Shown: piece by piece, positions 31,907-51,812 of the stretch
Layout: each line of letters starts with the position of its first letter
How positions within the stretch are numbered: the stretch's first letter is position 1
Made by a program: the position numbers and the translations under genes
Notes under the pieces: model-generated
What the model saw: only the letters and a program-made list of their open reading frames with translations
Database searches by the model: none
What the model was told of the DNA's origin: nothing
Assembly (NCBI GenBank): GCA_026396515.1
Contig: JAPLWQ010000002.1
Coordinates: 9,075 to 73,074 of the forward strand
Length of the DNA stretch: 64,000 bases
From: Candidatus Magasanikiibacteriota bacterium
GTDB taxonomy: Bacteria; Patescibacteriota; Patescibacteriia; Magasanikbacterales; GWA2-37-8
Direction: 5' to 3'

Positions 31907-32608
31907 TCAAATAGCTCTGGCCAAAGTAATCGCCCAAACTGTTTTTGAGCCACCGATTTTCAGCACTTTGGCACACTCATTTAATGTCGCGCCGGTAGTA
32001 TAGACATCATCAACTAAAATAACGGAATTAGGCACTGCGTCGCTTTTTACAGCAAAAGCGCCGTCCACATTTATTTCCCTTTCTTCTTTTGTCAGTTTTG
32101 CCTGTTGAGCGGTGGCGCGCAGCCGTGACAGGATACTATCATTAACTTCATACTTTCTTTGCGGAAAGATTTTTTTTATTTCCTGATAAATTATATCCGC
32201 CAATATTTTGGCTTGGTTAAATCCCCTCTCTCTTTCACGGCGGGGGAAAAGCGGTACGGGCAAGATCACACCTTCTTCAGGAATAGGAATACCCGATAAA
32301 TACCGCCCGATCAGCATTTGCCAGACCGATTGAATGTCATGCGCGTATTTATATTTAAAATCGCGTATCAATTTCGCTGACGGCTCGGCCTCCGTATAAC
32401 TCATTAAAGCCGAGACGCCGTCTAAATTGAAAAATCCGCGGCAGCCAAGGCAAAGCTCACCGCTGTTTTGTTTTCCACAGCCCGGACATCTTAGCACCGG
32501 AGATATTTTTTGTTTTTCAAAACACTTTTCACACCACCAGACGCCTTCTTTTCCGCATTCGGCGCAATAAACCGGAAATAGAATATCTTTAACCAGCTTT
32601 ATTATCAT
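31907..32608 (-). CDS. comF: ComF family protein (phosphoribosyltransferase-domain competence protein)
   Basis: N-terminal 4-Cys zinc finger (CAECGK ... CEKC ... CPGCGK ... CLGC) and C-terminal PRTase motif VILVDDVYTTGATL. Start taken at MIIKLVKD (32606-32608), just after the upstream terminator hairpin. Confidence 0.7.
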   Translation of the reverse strand: MIIKLVKDILFPVYCAECGKEGVWWCEKCFEKQKISPVLRCPGCGKQNSGELCLGCRGFFNLDGVSALMSYTEAEPSAKLIRDFKYKYAHDIQSVWQMLIGRYLSGIPIPEEGVILPVPLFPRRERERGFNQAKILADIIYQEIKKIFPQRKYEVNDSILSRLRATAQQAKLTKEEREINVDGAFAVKSDAVPNSVILVDDVYTTGATLNECAKVLKIGGSKTVWAITLARAI

Positions 32609-32612
32609 ATTA

Positions 32613-32640
32613 CAAAGACGCCCTTGCGGGCGTCTTAAAA
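32613..32640 (-). terminator. terminator hairpin at the end of the T4SS-like operon
   Basis: AAGACGCCCTTGCGGGCGTCTT: perfect 9-bp stem, loop TTGC. Followed on the minus-strand RNA by UUUGUAAUAU. Sits between the stop at 32652 and the comF ATG. Confidence 0.5.
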
Positions 32641-32651
32641 AATCATTTATG

Positions 32652-33248
32652 CTATTTAACCCATTCAAATTTATCCACTAGCCAAATGCCTTTTGTTTCC
32701 ACCAGCCAAACCTTTGCCTTTTCATTCGTTTGCGTTGTGCTTGAACCCTTGGTAGTTATTCGCTGGGCAGACACTTCTACCATGGCTTTTCCGCTGGCGT
32801 ATTCAACGACATCAGACGCCACCGCATTGGTGGTTACACCGAGAAACACCGCCGGTTTGCCTGTGCCAATCTTTTTTTCAAGTTCAGACCAATAACTCAT
32901 TGTCACCAATGTCTCCACTTCGCGGATATTAGCAAAATCACTATCCGAAGAATATGTGCCATAGCGCTCGGTGAATATTTTTGCCATTTGCTTCGCCCCG
33001 TTTTTTAGCGCTTCTTCCGTAGTAAGCGGTTTCACCGGTATTCCAGTCGGTACGACAACCGGCGGCGGGGTGATCTGTACAGGAAAATTAGTTGAATCAA
33101 TCTGACCGGTCTGGTCTTCAGCCGGCGGCTGTTCAACCGGCGGCGCCGCTTTTTGGCGGACAAAAACAATAATACCGACGCTGATTCCCAGTATAATCAA
33201 AACAATCAAACTGATAAAAATAAACAGACGGGAGCGAAGTGTGGTCAT
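32652..33248 (-). CDS. bitopic membrane protein, possible VirB8-like T4SS component
   Basis: 198 aa. N-terminal TM, Pro-rich linker, about 110-aa globular C-terminal domain. The VirB8-like assignment rests on architecture and operon context only. Confidence 0.3.
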   Translation of the reverse strand: MTTLRSRLFIFISLIVLIILGISVGIIVFVRQKAAPPVEQPPAEDQTGQIDSTNFPVQITPPPVVVPTGIPVKPLTTEEALKNGAKQMAKIFTERYGTYSSDSDFANIREVETLVTMSYWSELEKKIGTGKPAVFLGVTTNAVASDVVEYASGKAMVEVSAQRITTKGSSTTQTNEKAKVWLVETKGIWLVDKFEWVK

Positions 33249-33289: not shown

Positions 33290-35158
33290 TTATTTATTTT
33301 CTGCAACAAATTCTTTTTTTGCTTTTTCAATGGCCAGAAGCTGTTCGGGGTTGGTAGTGACTATCTGATCTTCGGTATATGATGCCACCACTTTAATGGC
33401 GGCGTGTTTCCGGCCGGCAAAAAATATTCCTTCGCCTACTCCGGACTCAAGCAACAAATATTTTTCACTATCGGTCAATACAAATACTTTCTGAATCAGA
33501 TCAATAGACGCCGGCGACTGACGCAATAATAATTGCAGGGCCGAGTTGGTGACGATCGCCTGCCCATATTGCGATTTCAAAAAGTCGTTCACATCCTGAG
33601 TGATAGTGGTAACGCCGAGATAATATTTACGGCAGCGTTTCACCAGAGCATAAATGAAACGCGCCGAATCTTCGTGCATCATCAGCCACCAGGCCTCGTC
33701 GATCACCAATATTCTTTTCTTGCGCTCCGAGCGCACCACATTCCAAATATAGTTCACAATGGTATATATGGCAATCGGCCGAAGTTCATCTTCCAAATCC
33801 CGCACCGAATAAATGACCAGCTGATTTTTCATATCAACATTGGTCGGCGAGTTGAACAAGCCGCTGAAAGTGCCTTCAGTATATTTTTGCAATTTTAAGA
33901 CAAGCTCTTCCGACCCTTGCATTCCCTCCAATATCTCCACCAAATCCTGCATAATCGGCGGCTTAACCGTGGCCAAATCGGCATCGGGCGTAATATCCTT
34001 CTTGGCGTAGGTTTCAATCAATGCACGGTCAATAATAGCGTCTTGTTCAACGGTCAGACCGCCAAGCATGATGCGCAGGAGCCCTTTCACAGTAATAACC
34101 GCTCCGCGGATCACGTCTTCGGTGGATATTTCCATACCCATCGGCCGGGGCAGATCAAATGGATTAATTTTAGCTTCTGATGAAAGAGAAATGTTAACAT
34201 AAGTACCGCCGACAGCGTCGCTTAAATGCTTATATTCCATTTCCGGGTCGATAACAATCACATCCACGCCCATCATCATGGTACGCAGAATTTCCAGCTT
34301 AATGGCATAACTTTTCCCGGCGCCGGAAGTGGCGAACACCACCATATTGGCGTTTTGCAGGGAAAACCGTTCAAATAAAATCAAGCTGTTGTTGTGGCGG
34401 TTAATGCCGTAAAGTATGCCGTCATCAGATGTCAGCTCGGCGGATATAAAAGGAAACGACGCGGCAATCGGAGAGCTGTTCATGTTGAAGGCAACATACA
34501 ATTCATCATTACATAAAGGCAAAGTGGAATTATAGCCCTGCTCTGATTGATACAAAACCTTTCGGGTCATAATCAGCTTGCCGCCGAAAATATTTTCAAT
34601 ATCCTCGGTGGTCTGGTCCAATTCTTCTTTTTTTCGCGCATAAATTGTGGCGTAAAAACAGAATTGAAAAAAATGTTCGGTGCCCTGCGTTAAATTATCC
34701 CGCAATTGCTCAATATCGCGCAAAGCTGTTTCGCGGATCGGATCGCGCGGTGCGCCTTTTTCCGTATCGGCATTAATCTGCGCTTCCAAGGCGCCGACTT
34801 TATTTTTTAATTGTTTTAAAATGACGGCTGATTTTACCGGATAGAAAAACATGGCCAAATCCATGGTGACGGAAAGATTGATAACGGGCGAGGCCCAGCC
34901 GATGGAAATGTAGCGCGGATAGGCGGTGATAAAAAGCGTGCGGCAAAAAGCATCACCAAGCTGAACAAAACTTGACTCCACGCGAAAAGCGGAAGGCGCC
35001 ACCAAATCGCGGATGGACACCACGCCTTCACGATATATTTTTTCCTCTTCAAGCGTCACCAGCTCTTCAGATGCTTTTCTCTTAAGCTCACTGGTTTCGG
35101 TCTGCAGGCGGCTGGTGGCCTGTTTTTGTTCTTTAATCGCCGATGGTTTAAATGCCAT
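33290..35158 (-). CDS. virB4: VirB4/TrbE/CagE-family type IV secretion ATPase (C-terminal 622-aa part)
   Basis: Walker A FATSGAGKSYAI, Walker B RILVIDEAWWLM, and VirB4-type N-proximal block (LGDAFCRTLFITAYPRYISIGW). Confidence 0.75.
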   Translation of the reverse strand: MAFKPSAIKEQKQATSRLQTETSELKRKASEELVTLEEEKIYREGVVSIRDLVAPSAFRVESSFVQLGDAFCRTLFITAYPRYISIGWASPVINLSVTMDLAMFFYPVKSAVILKQLKNKVGALEAQINADTEKGAPRDPIRETALRDIEQLRDNLTQGTEHFFQFCFYATIYARKKEELDQTTEDIENIFGGKLIMTRKVLYQSEQGYNSTLPLCNDELYVAFNMNSSPIAASFPFISAELTSDDGILYGINRHNNSLILFERFSLQNANMVVFATSGAGKSYAIKLEILRTMMMGVDVIVIDPEMEYKHLSDAVGGTYVNISLSSEAKINPFDLPRPMGMEISTEDVIRGAVITVKGLLRIMLGGLTVEQDAIIDRALIETYAKKDITPDADLATVKPPIMQDLVEILEGMQGSEELVLKLQKYTEGTFSGLFNSPTNVDMKNQLVIYSVRDLEDELRPIAIYTIVNYIWNVVRSERKKRILVIDEAWWLMMHEDSARFIYALVKRCRKYYLGVTTITQDVNDFLKSQYGQAIVTNSALQLLLRQSPASIDLIQKVFVLTDSEKYLLLESGVGEGIFFAGRKHAAIKVVASYTEDQIVTTNPEQLLAIEKAKKEFVAENK

Positions 35159-35162
35159 ATTT

Positions 35163-35849
35163 TTAAGCGTTTTCCGCGTTTAATGTTTCAAGCGGAGCGA
35201 GCGGTTCTGACAAAGCGATATCCGGATTATAGGTGGTATAAAATAATTCAATCAGCGACTGCGTGTCCAGCCGCACCACTTCCAAACCCATACTGGTCAG
35301 GCCAGATTCAATCTGGCGCACGCGCATATCCAGATCATATTTTCTTTTCATAAACCTTTCTTCTTTCAGACGCACTGTGATTGCCGGATTGATAACTTCC
35401 GAAGCGCGCGACCAAAAACCGCGCTTTTTATTTGATAACGGGTCATACGGCACAATCACATAGAACAGTTTGCTCATAATCTTCCCCAAACTGACCAATT
35501 CGGAAACAAATGAGCGGTAGTCGGCAATCTGCATCCTTAATAATTCATTCGGTTGTTCGCGCTCTTTCCTCGCCAATTTTTCCAAATACGGTTTAACATT
35601 CAGCTGACGGGATTGAATAACAATCTGTAAAGGATGGTCTAAACCGTTTAAAAAAGATACATATGAAAAAACAATGGCTTGCTGTTCGTCCTCATTTTTA
35701 AGCGAAAAATTAATACTGGATACCATAAGCACAGACCGCAGGGTGCCGTCTTTCATCACAACGGTATCGTTCTTAATTTCGGCGATAGACAAATTTTTTT
35801 GCGTGGTTGGAATCGCCGCCCGTTTATTTGATGCTTTTTTATTTTTCAT
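35163..35849 (-). CDS. VirB4 N-terminal domain encoded as a separate 228-aa ORF (split or frameshifted virB4)
   Basis: IAEIKNDTVVMKDGTLRSVLMVSSINFSLKNEDEQQAIVFSYVSFLNGLDHPLQIVIQSRQ resembles the extreme N-terminal CagE/TrbE/VirB4 block. Its stop lies 4 nt from the ATG of 33290..35158, in a different frame, at an A5 run. Confidence 0.45.
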   Translation of the reverse strand: MKNKKASNKRAAIPTTQKNLSIAEIKNDTVVMKDGTLRSVLMVSSINFSLKNEDEQQAIVFSYVSFLNGLDHPLQIVIQSRQLNVKPYLEKLARKEREQPNELLRMQIADYRSFVSELVSLGKIMSKLFYVIVPYDPLSNKKRGFWSRASEVINPAITVRLKEERFMKRKYDLDMRVRQIESGLTSMGLEVVRLDTQSLIELFYTTYNPDIALSEPLAPLETLNAENA

Positions 35850-35869: not shown

Positions 35870-36334
35870 CTAATCTTCTGCCTGATAATAACCGCCTGTA
35901 TTAACTGTTAAAGACAGATCGCGAATCCGGCTGTATGAAAGGCGCGGAATCGGTTTCGCCGCTTCCGGAATCGTTACCACGCCCTCGGCCTGAAGGCGCT
36001 TTATTTCGCCGGTGTTATAAATTTTATTCCAAATGCGCAAAGCCGGCCGGCGCAGCGTCTGTACTATGTTTAATAAAAAATAGTGGAATGCCTGCCCGTT
36101 GATTTTTACAAAGGCGATGATGAGCGAACCGCCTCCGATTACGGCGGTTAAAAAAATGAATAAAGCAAAATCGGCCAATTTGAAGGTGACAAATAATACC
36201 AGGCCGGCCACCAGCAAAATAACAAACTGCCGGGCGGTAATCGGACCGAATATTTTATCCTCCACATCAATAAATTGCGGGACAACAAATTGCGTTTGCA
36301 TAGCTATATTACAACAATTCTTTTTCCATCTCAA
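35870..36334 (-). CDS. small two-TM membrane protein, VirB3/PrgI-like candidate
   Basis: 154 aa with two hydrophobic helices, positioned directly upstream of virB4 as VirB3 homologues usually are. Confidence 0.35.
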   Translation of the reverse strand: MRWKKNCCNIAMQTQFVVPQFIDVEDKIFGPITARQFVILLVAGLVLFVTFKLADFALFIFLTAVIGGGSLIIAFVKINGQAFHYFLLNIVQTLRRPALRIWNKIYNTGEIKRLQAEGVVTIPEAAKPIPRLSYSRIRDLSLTVNTGGYYQAED

Positions 36335-37505
36335 TTATCGCCTGAATCTCGGGTATCTGTATTCTGGCGGTATCGGCCGATAATATTTCTGATAATTTTT
36401 TCTTTGTATTCAGCGCTTCGGTAACGGCTCCGGAATAATCAATAAACAGCGGGCTTCGGCGCCAGGCGGCTAAGCCGTCGAGATACCAGACATATGATTC
36501 TTCCCGCAAATTGAGAAATTTTTGTTTGAGACGAGACGCGGCTTCGGCCGGATTCGATGATAGACGGCGAAAATCGGTTAAAGACATGAACTCTATTTCA
36601 TCAATCGGGCCCAGATTTGACGGTCTTGCCGGCGTGATATCGCGGACAATCGGTCGGACCGGCGGAGCTGAAGTTTCCCTATCCTTACTAAGGAGAGGGC
36701 TGGGGTGAGGTAAACCTGTCCGCATTGTCTGTGGCGCTCTGACAAATGTATTTACCGGGGAAGATGTTGAAGGCAGGACATCTTCACTCTCTTTCATTAA
36801 TGCTGTCGGCATGCCCATTGGTTTAACCAACGGCTTGCCCACTGTTGCCGCCGGCGGAATTTCTTCTTCCAATAAAGAAGTAGCGTCATTTTTTCCAAAA
36901 CGGGCGGTAGGCGCCGGAGCCGCCGGTTTTGCCGGCATCGGAGTTTTACGATCTTCAATTATTTTCAGAACGGGAGGTACTGGTTTGGGCATCGACGGCT
37001 TAATGATTACTGCCGGTTTAATTTCAGGTTTTGACTGAACAATTTCCGCTGCCAGGGCTTTAATTCCCCCCGGATTCAAAGCAATTTTTTTGGCCGCGGC
37101 CAACTTTGGCGGTCGCGCTATTGGTTGAATTTTTGGCGGTAATACTGGCTTTGCCGGCACATTTTCTGTTTCAATGATTTCTGACGCAAGCAATTTTATG
37201 GCAGCCAAATTCGGCACGGACTTTTTTAGAACCGGTCTTGACGGCTGAACCGGCGGAGCTGATACCTCCCTCTCCTTACTAAGGAGAGGGTTGGGGTGAG
37301 GTAAGCCAGTCCGCATCGTCTGCGGAGCAGGCGCCGGTGTAACCGGGGTAATAGCCGGCTTAAGAGCGGGCGCAGGCTTATTTTTGCGCGCCTTAAAATC
37401 GGCCAAAGAAATTTTTTCAATGGTTCCGTCCGGTTTTTTAACAGTAATCATGGTGTTATCCGCCATATCAAACGCTCCATTTAAATTTATTATCCGCTTC
37501 GTCAA
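36309..37505 (-). CDS. proline-rich repeat protein of the T4SS-like operon (contains two in-frame palindromic elements)
   Basis: 398 aa, extended P/A/K-rich sequence. An internal ~30-aa duplication (QTMRTGLPHPNPLLSKEREVSAPPVQP and QTMRTGLPHPSPLLSKDRETSAPPVRP) is encoded by palindromic element copies at about 36678-36711 and 37268-37301. The true start may be MADNTMITV at about 37466, which would remove the overlap with the upstream gene. Confidence 0.45.
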   Translation of the reverse strand: MTKRIINLNGAFDMADNTMITVKKPDGTIEKISLADFKARKNKPAPALKPAITPVTPAPAPQTMRTGLPHPNPLLSKEREVSAPPVQPSRPVLKKSVPNLAAIKLLASEIIETENVPAKPVLPPKIQPIARPPKLAAAKKIALNPGGIKALAAEIVQSKPEIKPAVIIKPSMPKPVPPVLKIIEDRKTPMPAKPAAPAPTARFGKNDATSLLEEEIPPAATVGKPLVKPMGMPTALMKESEDVLPSTSSPVNTFVRAPQTMRTGLPHPSPLLSKDRETSAPPVRPIVRDITPARPSNLGPIDEIEFMSLTDFRRLSSNPAEAASRLKQKFLNLREESYVWYLDGLAAWRRSPLFIDYSGAVTEALNTKKKLSEILSADTARIQIPEIQAIIEMEKELL

Positions 37506-38583
37506 AATACATCAGTTCGGCAATTTTCTGATCATTATATTTCATTGCCGCGCTCTGCAGAGCGGTAAGCACACTGTCCAAGTCAACATACTCGCCTTGA
37601 GCATTTTTCGGAAACACGGCTTCAATTTTTTTCTTTATTTCAGCGTAAGACGGTTTAGCCGGAGCCGGCGGTTTTGGTACGGCAATAGTTTGTTCAATTT
37701 TTTTTGGCGCCTCTAATTTTGGCGGCACCGGCGCAGTTTGTTTTGTAATAACCGGTGCATTCTCCCGGGGCTTCGCATTGGTTTGCATTGCGACAGAAGA
37801 AGACCTTGTCTCAATTGGCATTTTGGGCTTTTCCACCGGAGTGGAATTGCGGACGCCTGTGACTTTTGTCGTCACGGTATCGCCACCCGGGGAATCCGGA
37901 ACAAAAGTGGACGGGTTGGTATAAACAAACACCAAGTCGGGCATCTCTTCAGCCGGTGTGTTCACAAAAAATCGCACTAATTCAACAAATTTCATCACCG
38001 CCTCATCAATTTCAACGAAAGTATATTGTTTCTGATAAATATCTTCATTTAGACCCTTGGGAAAAAACAATTTTTGCATCCGTTCATAAAATTGGGCAAG
38101 GAGCAGCGTCTCTCCTCTGCGGCTGTCAAGAAGAGCTATTTCATCAATCACATTTCTAATCGTGACATCCTGTCCGCCTAATTGTCCTATTACCCACTCG
38201 GACTTCGTGAATGAATCCTTTGCTTTGGAAAAAAATCTTTCAATTTCTTCAGGCAAAGTCATTCTCGTTTGCATATACCACATCAGCCGGTCAAACACAT
38301 CAAACCCAAGCCGGATGGCCTCCGGGGTTTGCTGCTCAATGGCTTTTTGCACGACTGCCTCTCCGGTCGTCCCAAGATACTTCCACGTTCCATACACATA
38401 CAAGCGCCAATAAGTTTTCAGGTATGGCTTAATCTCCTCGTAGCTTTTTCCATCAAAAAAATCGAATAACTCCACGCGGATAATATCCATGTTGCCGGAA
38501 TTAAAACACTGGGTCTCAAAGAAATCCTTTTCCAATTCGGAAAAGTCAATACCGGCTGATAATTTTGGATGATATGACATCAT
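37468..38583 (-). CDS. hypothetical cytoplasmic protein of the T4SS-like operon
   Basis: 371 aa, TGA stop. N-terminal globular domain and a Pro-rich segment (KPPAPAKP). No recognisable motif. Confidence 0.4.
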   Translation of the reverse strand: MMSYHPKLSAGIDFSELEKDFFETQCFNSGNMDIIRVELFDFFDGKSYEEIKPYLKTYWRLYVYGTWKYLGTTGEAVVQKAIEQQTPEAIRLGFDVFDRLMWYMQTRMTLPEEIERFFSKAKDSFTKSEWVIGQLGGQDVTIRNVIDEIALLDSRRGETLLLAQFYERMQKLFFPKGLNEDIYQKQYTFVEIDEAVMKFVELVRFFVNTPAEEMPDLVFVYTNPSTFVPDSPGGDTVTTKVTGVRNSTPVEKPKMPIETRSSSVAMQTNAKPRENAPVITKQTAPVPPKLEAPKKIEQTIAVPKPPAPAKPSYAEIKKKIEAVFPKNAQGEYVDLDSVLTALQSAAMKYNDQKIAELMYFDEADNKFKWSV

Positions 38584-49400: not shown

Positions 49401-51812
49401 TGATGCGGGAATAATATATGACAGTGGGTTTGCATTTGAATAATTGCTCGCCACTTCCTGATAGGCGGCATAGCCCACGCATTTGGCGTCGCACTGGTCG
49501 TTCCAGGTTACTTGACCGCCGGCCACCACTGCCGGCGTGAATTTGCCCGGTATTATTTCTTGCGTGAGAGCAGAGGTATATAAATTGCAGTTTTCTTCTT
49601 CAGGCAGACAGACCTGCGCATAATCATTGCATTTTCCCGCGTCTGCCGGGCGCAGTAAATTTAAGTCCGCGAGATTTTTCGGCCAACTGACGCCGTCAAT
49701 TAAACGCGCAAATGTCTGAATATATTTATTTGGTAAAGTGGTGGCGTCGGCATCATAGCAAAAAAGATAATTCGGCGCTTTTTTAAGATAGATTAATGTT
49801 TCAGAATCAGATGCCACTTTGAAAGCGCTGCAACCGTCATCGGTTGTCTTACAAGTTGTGGCTTTTTTGTTAAACGAAATGCTGGTGTTGGTGAAACTAT
49901 TTGACGAGGTGCTGATCACGGGCAAATACCAATCAGTGGTTGTGGGGGTAAAATAGTGCCTCGCGGTTATATAGTGGGTGCAACCATCATTTTCGGCATT
50001 GCATTGTTCAGTATCGAGCGTGCGGGTTAAATACCCTATTGTGTCGCCCGCTGAATTGGTAAACGCCCGGCAAGTGTTATATTGCGCGTCGCAATAATCG
50101 GCCTTGAATTTCCAAATCGGCTTCTCTCTTAAACAATACCCCCAGCTTGAGCAAGAACCATCTTTATTAAAACCAACGCAATGCTGAATGTCAGCGCAGG
50201 TTTGTAAACGCACGCCATCAGCGGAGATGGCACTATAGACAAACGATTTGCACCGCATCTTTGGAAGTTTGATCACCCAGTGCGGGTTGATAAGATGATA
50301 ATAAAGAGAACCCTCAGTGTAGTAGTTATCAACAACCTCTTTCAGAGTTACTGGGTTTTCTTGCGGCGAGCTATAGGCGGCAATTTCAAAACCAAGCGGC
50401 AAGACGCGCGCTAATCGCAAATAGCGGATATTGCGATGACAGTACGCCGATTGCGAACAGTCAAATTTTTGATTATTGGCAGCGTCTGATTCGGGAATCA
50501 ATTTCCAATCACCGTGCAAAAACCCGCGCTCCATCGCCTGTTTGATAGTGAACGGTTCGCCGGTGTTGGCTTGCTGGAGAATCTGCATGAATGACTGGTC
50601 AACAATGCAGGCCTCAGGCGACAAATTGTCTTCCGAGCATTCAGCCATGTTCGGAGAAATATCATAATTATCCAAAGTTGTAATTTTCGGTTTTAGCAGT
50701 TCGCTGAACATTTCCTGAGCCGCGCGGCGGTTGCCGGTGCCGGCGCTGCCGGATGAATAGTAACTCGTTGCCATGCTTTCGGCAGAATTATCATCTTCGC
50801 ATTGATCCCAACCAACGCCGGAAATGCTTAAACCCGGGTTACACACCTTCGCGCCACCCGGCAGCATACCTTTGGTAATAAAGTTATTAATGACCGTACC
50901 AAGCAAAGTATTTACAAAAGTGCTGACTGTGTTTAGAGCCAGGCTGGCGCCTCCTTTTTCCAAAGCTGCAGCCGTCATTGTCAATTGACTCGCCTTTTCT
51001 TCTCTTGTTTTATTTGCTGCCGATTGTGCGGTAAATTCTTCACGCATTACAGTGGCCGGAGCGATATTCTTGCGTGAAATAATTTCAGTCATAGCAAAAA
51101 TGCCGCTGCCTTCTTCACGGTCAAGCTGGGCACCGGCTGTTGTTTCGGCGGCCATAGTATCCATTTTTTCTTTTCCGGAAAACCAAACGCCAAAATCACT
51201 GTCTTCTACCTGCACACCCATACCAAGACGGCTGGTTAACCCTTCCACTGAAGCATATTTGCTCCGAATATTTTCAACATTATATGCGCTCTTCAGTTGC
51301 TGCCAAGTACAACGTGGTGTGGGCGGGCCGTAATTAAAATGGAAGCCAAGCTTTAACATCAAATCAAGTCGCAGGTCGGGCAAATTACACAAATCTAGGC
51401 CGAGATCCTCGCTTAGAGTGGCAAGCGCTTCACCAAGCGCGTCGCCGGCTGTTTGCGCCAGGTAATTGCCAAAACTCTCTTGGCTGGCAAACGGGCCTTG
51501 ACCAAAATCGCCGGCAGCCAAATACACGGCCATGTCATAAGCGATTTTATTTGTAAAATAGTTCAAGCCGTTCATTATGGCAGACATTACCATCAAGAGG
51601 CCTTCGGTTTTGATTTTTTCTAACAGCGTTTTTTCCTTTTCACCGGCTGTTTGTTGAAGAGTCCAAGGTTTAAAATAACCAGCCCATCCCACATAATCAT
51701 GATATTGCGCTTTAGCAGGTGTTGGATAAAGCAATATTAAGCCAAAAATAAAAGTGAAGACAATGCTTGCAAGCACTGCTCCCAGTCCGAATTTTTTAGA
51801 TTTGGAAATCAT
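43461..51812 (-). CDS. giant cysteine-rich secreted/surface protein
   Basis: 2,783 aa (about 8.35 kb). N-terminal signal/anchor (LGAVLASIVFTFIFGLILLYPTPAKA). Hundreds of Cys in repeated CxxC/C...C patterns. A segment resembling a carbohydrate-binding beta-sandwich (ISNWSGSAGSVSVATS ... ILSFWAKGN). Starts 7 nt after the upstream gene; TAG stop. Confidence 0.6.
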   Translation of the reverse strand: MISKSKKFGLGAVLASIVFTFIFGLILLYPTPAKAQYHDYVGWAGYFKPWTLQQTAGEKEKTLLEKIKTEGLLMVMSAIMNGLNYFTNKIAYDMAVYLAAGDFGQGPFASQESFGNYLAQTAGDALGEALATLSEDLGLDLCNLPDLRLDLMLKLGFHFNYGPPTPRCTWQQLKSAYNVENIRSKYASVEGLTSRLGMGVQVEDSDFGVWFSGKEKMDTMAAETTAGAQLDREEGSGIFAMTEIISRKNIAPATVMREEFTAQSAANKTREEKASQLTMTAAALEKGGASLALNTVSTFVNTLLGTVINNFITKGMLPGGAKVCNPGLSISGVGWDQCEDDNSAESMATSYYSSGSAGTGNRRAAQEMFSELLKPKITTLDNYDISPNMAECSEDNLSPEACIVDQSFMQILQQANTGEPFTIKQAMERGFLHGDWKLIPESDAANNQKFDCSQSAYCHRNIRYLRLARVLPLGFEIAAYSSPQENPVTLKEVVDNYYTEGSLYYHLINPHWVIKLPKMRCKSFVYSAISADGVRLQTCADIQHCVGFNKDGSCSSWGYCLREKPIWKFKADYCDAQYNTCRAFTNSAGDTIGYLTRTLDTEQCNAENDGCTHYITARHYFTPTTTDWYLPVISTSSNSFTNTSISFNKKATTCKTTDDGCSAFKVASDSETLIYLKKAPNYLFCYDADATTLPNKYIQTFARLIDGVSWPKNLADLNLLRPADAGKCNDYAQVCLPEEENCNLYTSALTQEIIPGKFTPAVVAGGQVTWNDQCDAKCVGYAAYQEVASNYSNANPLSYIIPASGKSCGAADAGCSAFTNLTTDQGGLEQTEYFSYLRLCMLPDANKQKNFYVYESSETSGYQLKTYTFEKDASGGPKQIFHDTNELALYESEASPCNSISYLAGTANPDCHQFNDDSTNTYYAMLSKTVIVSDQCTPYRLNSPELVSGFSPTDLRCPYDFEPTSVGKRAGDAIELKENSCYYMGFTGNTNGAGDAQSCTKEAESCRAYKGNAGNNVRSLASDSFESTISNWSGSAGSVSVATSTESTQLGGHSLKISANVSSGGKVAIRTGFNIQQDKSYILSFWAKGNLSLDDIQIGEESGEASAYFSGPVTVSDVWRYYSFGPVEYNGPANTGKLRFLISLTGGETKLMYIDNVNLKEVTDYIYLVKNSLSVDPICDSNLSDNLPGEALSCMAYVDPAKNTYYLTNFSYLCREEAVGCTALLDTQNTPEQPLASAYNVWLKGESGTVAEITIEGTKFSCQVPVGKDGCYTNILGINDLENLYDLQGSDITLTNSTIIIPPDTPTTSPIYLVASKDVTCKAENMGCQVLGKGKFSPSGNTFTTAFGSATHYEVFEDTAVKNDPALYDTSLCRAEEIGCKSWKSGESVYYFKDPVQNGKLICKYVEPSAISYTTPAFNFPNPFGGPDIVIPEMEHNFSFGGWVWKDVGICTGGGKLCMSDSDCGEGKTCLFKNQVPCASDYSSATDGYGLWSNGNVGKYKGFVGECPVEQNGCTEFVDHSSATDEKKCALSGKKCENNSDCSEESEEDICIVNSANAYYLLDNTNLSEQMSLCNGQVSAAEGCVLIDNTNQPTKMYNTALTNQESLDKKEALVNPVASSTANDANIIIKVIHDRVCGEWAYCDLKQEFEDEETGEASSRCFHLGVCNKAGAVDAVAGKVVKDCAETVPLWTTKGQILSAALYRSVFNAWNSLDFSGYSTYGFYQVPDLTARKVGDTFRMVYVNTQYSFYGGGGSGTECIKPTATDNHNGDSCGTTAYSGHCYNGECLRSWAGYYPEYSSSLGCRAYSEMMSPFPYYVFKDSNADMLEFKDGFEDVNVCKTNNGNQTQLCEAECGYRKIKTDGAEVYEPISRPIEGNYICSTGLKAGLYCSGPESTGCGEGNSCSTIKSFQILNGWMGYCMERDETYRINGTNTANCMTWWPLESPPGVPNSWDQDPKAGYQINEGKKDRFMCLNNLPPTDLHHFGTVFTPKSHNGAAYDATLSMPKNNSYYMFLPDTIYDYEHNVINPEGDDDWVALYGLDDNTWVTGCYDNNGGTDWEVNQPTSGFTSSADLNLFKFDMPGGKKSHGMFCPLNASTLAYDTDVKFYCDYTLIDDATGRTICGTTEGGVLYHSGFSQFQDTRPAYVGKNLFSSGHPTYLNRREIERIDVHFDENSYMPKSKGWVSFISDMTDADEGERYFVSEENWAMNGGDSSYHSVELESTCEGKQYKAWEWKSWAGDSTPQWANSNKNKLITNGVCTDQFREEQLEVEDEDQGISVRVVWDDQYNLRGIWMNFENQVNTDAHTIGFFFVIHFTNGACKKYAQVSDTGADENNGKMYFKPFTNRLASGASLTLGTDGTGNDLSSRQRVRTPTLNESNYGLMEADPIAEDLNAVFINPFTVADQYHTVFSQAGSDEYSYAASKYGVFEAGVPLTVVDNMMDSICDTDCQSKISYTQSTIEGSATKPIASMLRTMFAKVYEFDKLADGSASDGGFDGYAKNAGDGKSGSYDAANPTRAAEISLNIYPPRVAAPSADSWVLDKISVDGKIGGNIYLMSGSQAHIKFYAWAHGNQMPIRRIVVDKGDSFGDTQIDSLISDSLGNRKFACSEKICDDTDEGSQFPCNSDGDCDPANTYYTCGDTSSDIKKFGNTDDTGCKAKPWDFVTDFNCPFGSMGIVESSSTGYVDIGFESSIPISSLGIDWAYIRQNFYGAEYVCVAHPRVYVLDNWGWCAGSCDYSSNTHVKGPGCYSEAGSGSTNQCDKTLSEPWVNYDGYVIVVPLPQ

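Follow-up and report, generated by a model that had tools for sequence, protein, structure and literature searches.

We describe a pair of adjacent genes on the minus strand of a 64,000-nucleotide (nt) stretch of DNA (the window; contig JAPLWQ010000002.1 of assembly GCA_026396515.1, from a Candidatus Magasanikiibacteriota bacterium) that between them encode VirB4, an ATPase of type IV secretion systems (T4SS). With a probability that we put at about 0.88, the locus is an ordinary Patescibacteria two-gene VirB4, in which a TrsD/TraD-like protein, equivalent to the initial ~200 residues of the N-terminal domain, and a short VirB4 are made as two separate polypeptides. Together these two polypeptides hold the sequence content of one VirB4. 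The upstream open reading frame (ORF), a trsD-like gene of 228 amino acids (aa) that we call ORF-N (35163..35849, minus strand), encodes the beginning of the VirB4 N-terminal domain as a detached piece and belongs with Pfam PF26593 'TraC-like' and the NCBIfam TrsD/TraD family. The downstream one, a short virB4 of 622 aa (ORF-C; 33290..35158, minus strand), encodes the remainder of that domain (roughly residues 1-244) followed by the C-terminal ATPase domain. Database entries for identical proteins carry the names 'hypothetical protein' (228 aa) and 'DUF87 domain-containing protein' (622 aa).

In the ORF listing of the window, ORF-N ends with a TAA stop at 35165-35163, and a 4-nt intergenic spacer, AAAT (35159..35162, minus strand), separates it from the ATG of ORF-C, which lies in the +1 frame relative to ORF-N. 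The junction thus reads AAC GCT TAA / AAAT / ATG GCA, and the stop together with the AAA of the spacer forms a run of five A (A5) within the string gcttaaaaatatgg. An earlier note on this DNA had described two ORFs 4 nt apart in different frames at such a run, with the extreme N-terminal block of VirB4 in the 228-aa ORF, a second N-terminal block plus Walker A and B motifs in the 622-aa ORF, and a combined length of about 850 aa. This description holds: the coordinates and the junction sequence agree with it, the lengths add up to 850 aa (228 + 622), and the model matches, the alignment to a natural fusion and the checked translations given below place the blocks and motifs where the note had placed them.

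ORF-C scores 356.2 bits (E = 3.5e-106) against NCBIfam NF045971, the CD1110 family of VirB4-like conjugal transfer ATPases, whose cut-off is 325, and covers positions 158-730 of the 752 positions of this model. It likewise covers positions 292-890 of 894 in VirB4_plasma, the model for VirB4 of Mycoplasma integrative and conjugative elements. Since both alignments start partway into the models, ORF-C is a VirB4 ATPase that lacks the first ~150-290 profile positions (~200 residues); it falls short of the complete N-terminal domain of a ~800-aa polypeptide, and the missing part is encoded by ORF-N. Pfam P-loop_TraG, AAA_10 and DUF87 are each found above cut-off, residues 245-601 match PDB 4AG5, a crystal structure of the C-terminal domain of VirB4 (E = 7e-47), and residues 271-576 match residues 446-741 of R388 TrwK in a PDB search. 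The Walker A motif, ATSGAGKS (residues 276-283; 34310..34333, minus strand), has six of its eight residues invariant in a 22-sequence alignment of ORF-C, and Walker B is ILVIDE (residues 483-488; 33695..33712, minus strand); both were checked by translation. The best 120 homologues of ORF-C in a large protein database are all of similar size (620-650 aa).

ORF-N supplies matches to the part of VirB4 that ORF-C lacks. It aligns to positions 10-95 of 752 in the CD1110 model and 90-219 of 894 in VirB4_plasma, and to positions 16-182 of 201 in NCBIfam NF041427 (TrsD/TraD; E = 6.9e-8). PF26593 is the precomputed assignment of a database protein identical to ORF-N (P0001) and of all 120 best homologues. 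A profile of the ORF-N family, built from 53 sequences, aligns its columns 11-206 to residues 32-217 of the 227-aa S. aureus TraD (hhalign, probability 80%, E = 1.4e-5), and ORF-N, like TrsD/TraD proteins, is a stand-alone protein of ~200-230 aa encoded directly upstream of a short virB4. Its predicted fold points in the same direction. The AlphaFold2 (AF2) model of ORF-N has a mean predicted local distance difference test (pLDDT) of 84.7 and a predicted template modelling score (pTM) of 0.72, with residues 224-228 below a pLDDT of 50, and a Foldseek search of the PDB with this model returned R388 TrwK/VirB4 chains as its top 14 matches (probability 0.99-1.00, TM score ~0.5, 200-230 aligned columns), the next match having a probability of 0.20.

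A search of the large protein database gave 3501 homologues for ORF-N, of which the best 120, with identities down to 70%, are 217-245 aa long. The best 150 cluster representatives, with identities down to 35%, are all of 452 aa or less. None of these 150 gave a BLASTP match to ORF-C. Homologues of 300-450 aa were considered as possible PrgI-TrsD or TrsD-VirB4 fusions and rejected, their Pfam matches being only weak and their extra sequence being P/Q/A/S-rich and disordered. Such extensions occur in many distant TrsD-like homologues (for example P0136, P0255, P0141, P0139 and P0186), where 100-220 P/Q/A/S-rich residues at the N- or C-terminus appear disordered, with no Pfam domains and no similarity to VirB4.

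How the two pieces fit together can be seen on a natural fusion, a 1344-aa VirB4-like protein encoded on a plasmid of Rubrobacter marinus. Residues 13-205 of ORF-N align to residues 118-316 of this protein (hhalign with the 53-sequence profile, probability 97%, E = 4.9e-11; 2.3e-11 with the single sequence in phmmer), and residues 35-605 of ORF-C align to residues 357-956 (BLASTP, 3e-59). The two ORFs are therefore collinear on a full-length VirB4, without overlap and without a missing domain, and, as ORF-N has no detectable similarity to ORF-C, they are not paralogous copies. The break between them falls within ~40-60 residues (about 40 when counted on the fusion) that neither ORF aligns to. 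In the ORFs its counterparts are the C-terminal tail of ORF-N, where model confidence is low, and the charged stretch of ~35 residues that opens ORF-C. On a fused enterococcal VirB4 of 796 aa, residues 45-582 of ORF-C match residues 221-772, residue 45 of ORF-C thus falling on residue 221. The split position is inside the conventional VirB4 N-terminal domain and does not coincide with the border between this domain and the C-terminal one.

The two-gene arrangement as such is already published and modelled, both in NCBIfam (TrsD/TraD) and in Pfam (PF26593). Quinonero-Coronel et al. (2025; Microb Genom, PMC12102498) reported 2,272 TrsD homologues in Patescibacteria, of which 1,664 adjoin virB4, and described TrsD as having remote homology to the VirB4 N-terminus and no assigned function; TrsD is not discussed in the main text of Guglielmini (2014). 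The pair in the window does not differ in kind from the pairs of that survey: it comes from the same phylum, its proteins are identical to entries from a Candidatus Magasanikbacteria metagenome-assembled genome (MAG), the order PrgI/VirB3, TrsD, VirB4, with a VirB6-like gene nearby, is the same, and a comF gene is present as in the class ABY1, where comF is common in T4SS loci (PMC12102498). What the present analysis adds is only a little: the explicit collinear tiling on a natural fusion, the common breakpoint, junction statistics that exclude recoding, and the fold match to TrwK.

Similar pairs are known from Bacillota plasmids. In the S. aureus pGO1/pSK41-type systems, TraD/TrsD (227 aa) lies directly upstream of TraE/TrsE (670 aa), as in the window, and the E. 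faecalis Inc18 (pIP501-type) plasmids have a similar pair of TraD (209 aa) and TraE (TrsE; 653 aa). Measured against fused VirB4, the ATPase genes of both start where ORF-C does, and ORF-C is 23% identical to S. aureus TraE. These systems are found on conjugative plasmids with a relaxase (MOBQ), whereas the location of the pair in the window looks chromosomal. Papers on pELF and pNP40 deal with TraD proteins that are unrelated. The closest matches in a plasmid collection, both from cultured isolates (ORF-N 30% identity, 2e-22; ORF-C 33%, 2e-114), are pairs on two Bacillota megaplasmids. Pontibacillus sp. ALD_SL1 (NZ_CP062975) encodes proteins of 274 and 621 aa, the ATPase being annotated as a CD1110-family VirB4; its gene comes immediately after that of the 274-aa protein, but in the place of prgI, before both, there is an unnamed hypothetical gene. 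Clostridium perfringens pJFP838A encodes PrgI followed by proteins of 312 and 641 aa, in the order seen in the window. The TrsD-like proteins of these two megaplasmids (Pontibacillus, L007:3923-4747; pJFP838A, L009:3905-4843) are longer than ORF-N and have a strongly hydrophobic, probably transmembrane N-terminus, where the Kyte-Doolittle maximum over 19 residues is 2.1-2.7 (at residues 1-2); the TrsD-like proteins of Patescibacteria, that of the window among them, and of staphylococci lack this hydrophobic start.

Fused relatives show the same parts in one chain. R388 TrwK (PDB 7O41-7O43, 8RTB/8RTD), the pCF10-type PrgJ-like protein (796 aa) and F TraC (876 aa) have the ATPase domain and Walker motifs of ORF-C, and the N-terminal domain content of fused VirB4/TraC/TrwK proteins equals that of ORF-N plus ORF-C. 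A VirB3/PrgI partner gene is common to both arrangements, but the fused proteins are one polypeptide and those of the window are two. The opposite change, a fusion of VirB3 to VirB4, is known in some lineages.

We then compared the junction across related genomes. Eighty loci from different GTDB species and three from metagenome contigs were fetched, and the junction was measured in 81 loci including the window. The 80 related loci come mainly from the neighbourhood of Magasanikbacteria, Uhrbacteria and Falkowbacteria (54-83% identity) and sample that part of the phylum rather than all Patescibacteria. VirB4 was split into two genes in all 81 loci and fused in none; one apparent fusion, in locus L021, was rejected because the first gene has its stop codon there and 24 nt separate it from the second. 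Wherever downstream DNA could be analysed, which was the case in all 81, ORF-C directly follows ORF-N. The lengths of both genes are steady, ORF-N being 224-231 aa in 79 of 81 loci, while of the 74 loci with a complete ORF-C, 71 have one of 618-645 aa. What varies is the junction: the two genes are separated by 1 to 235 nt (median 9), and by more than 50 nt in 14 loci, the second gene lies in the +1, +2 or 0 frame relative to the first in 36, 23 and 22 loci respectively, and the first gene stops with TAA in 56, TAG in 15 and TGA in 10. The junction sequences differ (TAATATG, TAATTTATG, TGATTGTATG and others). The start codon of the second gene is ATG in every one of the 81 loci, usually as ATGGCTTTTAAA, and the product of this gene has a conserved MAF(K) start.

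Several side observations were made in these loci. Gaps of 100-235 nt (L018, L034, L053, L055, L064, L071 and L078) contain apparent palindromic or tandem-repeat inserts and hairpins, two copies of AACTCCGCTCGAGGCGGACCCGCCTTGGGCGGGGAAATAA in the case of L071. These inserts may be small mobile repeats that landed between trsD and virB4, and their presence implies that the junction tolerates insertions. In one Candidatus Uhrbacteria MAG (L083; JACQWH010000029.1) the short VirB4 is 1289 aa long, its ORF beginning 87 nt past the TrsD-like stop, and carries a 664-aa intein inside the Walker A P-loop (GAGK / S...VHN / SFAIK) with the domains Intein_splicing (4.8e-16) and LAGLIDADG_3 (5.9e-20). About 30 of the records L013-L084, many of them GTDB species-representative MAGs, are titled 'uncultured Gammaproteobacteria bacterium' (third-party annotation (TPA) assemblies), and one is titled Candidatus Udaeobacter; given the Patescibacteria-type loci that they hold, these titles are probably mislabelled.

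The earlier note had left three readings of the junction: a genuinely split gene, a programmed slippage site, and a pseudogene or assembly indel. Only the first survives the comparison of the 81 loci, with their constant split, variable junctions and purifying selection. Recoding, in which ribosomes would shift frame in a programmed way or bypass the stop codon at the A5 run (GCT TAA AAA TAT G) and so yield a single VirB4 of ~850 aa, has some appeal in the window itself, where the run spans the stop and the second ORF lies in the +1 frame only 4 nt downstream. In the quarter or so of loci that have the second gene in frame 0, the products could in principle be joined by reading through one stop codon. 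A recoding signal would nevertheless be expected to leave a conserved slippery heptamer with downstream structure across orthologues, and none was seen; the junction sequences of the 81 loci have no visible slippery motif in common. The spread of gaps, frames and stop codons, together with the constant ATG, points to two independently initiated genes and neither to a conserved slippery site nor to a one-off indel. Long gaps, several of which look like inserted repeats or hairpins, the 100-220-residue disordered C-terminal tails that precede the stop in some family members, and the finished Bacillota megaplasmids, where the genes overlap by 11 nt in one and lie 130 nt apart in the other as against 4 nt in the window, all weigh in the same sense. 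We therefore regard recoding as very improbable.

A broken gene is less probable still. A virB4 pseudogene, or an error in homopolymer length in the assembly, could be imagined at this site, as a one-base change in the A5 run would put the two ORFs in a different frame relative to each other, and MAG assemblies do contain homopolymer errors. However, 80 related loci from independent assemblies, with the steady gene lengths given above, and finished plasmids of isolates show the same two-gene structure, and the TAA stays in the frame of ORF-N even after removal of 1 nt. Both ORFs are also under strong purifying selection. Among orthologues at ~82-90% protein identity, changes are concentrated at third codon positions, and codon counts between the window and L005 give 85 synonymous to 41 non-synonymous changes in ORF-N and 270 to 56 in ORF-C.

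A further alternative takes the 228-aa product for an accessory T4SS protein in its own right, one that resembles the VirB4 N-terminus as an ancient paralogue or through a convergent fold and that would act elsewhere, for instance as a chaperone-like or regulatory factor, instead of completing VirB4. The literature gives TrsD no function and places the TrsD homologues of Gracilibacteria away from virB4 (PMC12102498), and among the homologues there are some with long disordered tails or with a hydrophobic segment at the N-terminus that may span the membrane. Against an accessory protein, what ORF-C is missing is precisely the stretch of fused VirB4s to which ORF-N aligns, the two ORFs being collinear and without overlap, and the pairing of the genes is invariant in the loci analysed. 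In addition, the best fold match of the ORF-N model is VirB4 itself, and the breakpoint region is the same in five split pairs from four bacterial lineages. We consider this explanation unlikely, and hold to a VirB4 divided between two polypeptides.

Several results nonetheless weigh against the two-polypeptide VirB4. The NF041427 score of ORF-N, 32.6 bits, is far under the curated cut-off of 200 of a model that was built from Bacillota plasmid proteins. PDB searches with the ORF-N sequence, either single or as the 53-sequence profile, gave nothing relevant. The ORF-N family profile had no significant match to the 796-aa enterococcal fused VirB4 (hhalign, E = 0.12) or to F TraC, so that of the fusions tried only that of Rubrobacter yielded a significant match at full length; ORF-N and ORF-C together are also ~75 residues longer than the N-terminal region of the CD1110/PrgJ type, and the tiling is not residue-exact on all fused relatives. 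The AF2 model of ORF-C is poor (pLDDT 44.8, pTM 0.33), the 22 sequences of its alignment being 81-91% identical to the query. Finally, the contact between the TrsD-like protein and the short VirB4, which we infer by analogy, and the direction of evolution, which we take to be fission rather than fusion, both enter this reading as suppositions.

Comparison of the split pairs suggests where the gene may have come apart. The ATPase genes of the window and of the four plasmid pairs all start at positions ~355-390 of the Rubrobacter fusion, so that the breakpoint region, at the level of aligned sequences, is common to five split pairs from four bacterial lineages. Such a common start fits either one ancient fission or a linker that is uniquely permissive to splitting. 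The split would have arisen by gene fission in a monoderm (MPF-FATA) ancestor. More specifically, and only tentatively, it may go back to one ancient event with a single breakpoint in the non-aligning stretch of the N-terminal domain, common to pGO1/Inc18-type plasmids, Bacillota megaplasmids and essentially all Patescibacteria. A single fission is compatible with the data because the breakpoint maps to the same region in these five pairs, and we rate it as somewhat less probable than its alternatives.

The two genes are part of a minus-strand string that runs, from upstream to downstream, through a VirB6-like gene, two genes of unknown function, a PrgI/VirB3-like gene, the trsD-like gene, virB4, a gene for a 198-aa protein and comF. 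ORF-C thus has T4SS neighbours in PrgI upstream and, by a weak match, in the VirB6-like candidate. Directly upstream of the trsD-like gene, a small membrane protein of the PrgI family (VirB3-like; 35870..36334, minus strand) matches Pfam PrgI at 3.5e-9, above cut-off, and the true start of prgI is probably an internal ATG; PrgI occupies the same position in loci L001, L003 and L005 and in C. perfringens pJFP838A. The candidate VirB6-like channel subunit (989 aa; 38586..41555, minus strand) has a weak match, below cut-off, to the NCBIfam CD3337/EF1877 mobilome membrane protein (2.9e-5), and its syntenic counterpart in L001 (1051 aa) has a weak match to TrbL. Between it and prgI lie the two genes of unknown function (36309..38583, minus strand), which encode 371 aa (38583..37468) and 398 aa (37505..36309) and have no Pfam or NCBIfam match. 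Two unannotated genes are found at the equivalent position in L001, L003, L005 and L006, with a short opposite-strand ORF between them in L005. The 398-aa protein is proline-rich and contains a near-exact internal repeat of ~27 aa, QTMRTGLPHPNPLLSKEREVSAPPVQP and QTMRTGLPHPSPLLSKDRETSAPPVRP; the predicted TTG start of its gene overlaps the upstream 371-aa ORF by 38 nt.

Directly downstream of virB4, the 198-aa protein (32652..33248, minus strand) has a hydrophobic N-terminal stretch and no Pfam or NCBIfam family match, and a gene for 194-198 aa follows virB4 in L001, L003 and L005 too. The string ends with a gene of the ComF family (competence, phosphoribosyltransferase-like; 31907..32668, minus strand; NCBIfam comF, 1.4e-28; Pfam Pribosyltran), which shares 17 nt with the end of the 198-aa gene. 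From PrgI onward the gene order is identical in L001, L003 and L005, and the larger upstream genes are comparable only in part. The best sigma-70-like promoter match, TTGACC-18-TATAAT (11 of 12 consensus positions; 42070..42099, minus strand), lies ~500 nt upstream of the VirB6-like gene and is a possible operon promoter, as a match to the consensus only; near the trsD-virB4 junction only weak, low-scoring promoter consensus matches were found. Further upstream, the window contains a strong bidirectional terminator-like hairpin at 43381-43413 and, just upstream of the T4SS string, a giant 2783-aa ORF (43461-51812, minus strand) whose sole match is a CBM_4_9 domain (1.1e-7) and whose product may be a surface or adhesion protein.

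How the two polypeptides might work as one can be proposed by analogy. The TrsD-like protein would dock non-covalently on the short VirB4 and complete its membrane-proximal subdomain next to PrgI. We propose this because the R388 structures 7O41 and 8RTB, which are among the top fold matches, place VirB4 in an inner-membrane complex with VirB3, VirB6 and VirB8. The 4-nt gap would imply co-transcription and, probably, coupled translation, which would favour production of the two proteins in a 1:1 ratio.

Epibiotic growth of Patescibacteria reportedly depends on their T4SS as an essential system (PMC12102498, PMC12857230), and the TrsD homologue of Ca. Southlakia epibionticum ML1 is listed as essential (PMC12102498). 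If a single fission did take place, it would be a discrete character tying the origin of this essential system to one monoderm (MPF-FATA) sublineage, and it would imply that the detached subdomain serves as an adaptor linking the ATPase hexamer to PrgI/VirB3, one that is separable and may be regulated. For annotation, the 228-aa and 622-aa genes are to be read as one two-subunit VirB4 motor rather than as a frameshifted pseudogene. A motor whose membrane-proximal subdomain is a polypeptide of its own should also be useful for structural and genetic work on the T4SS of Patescibacteria.

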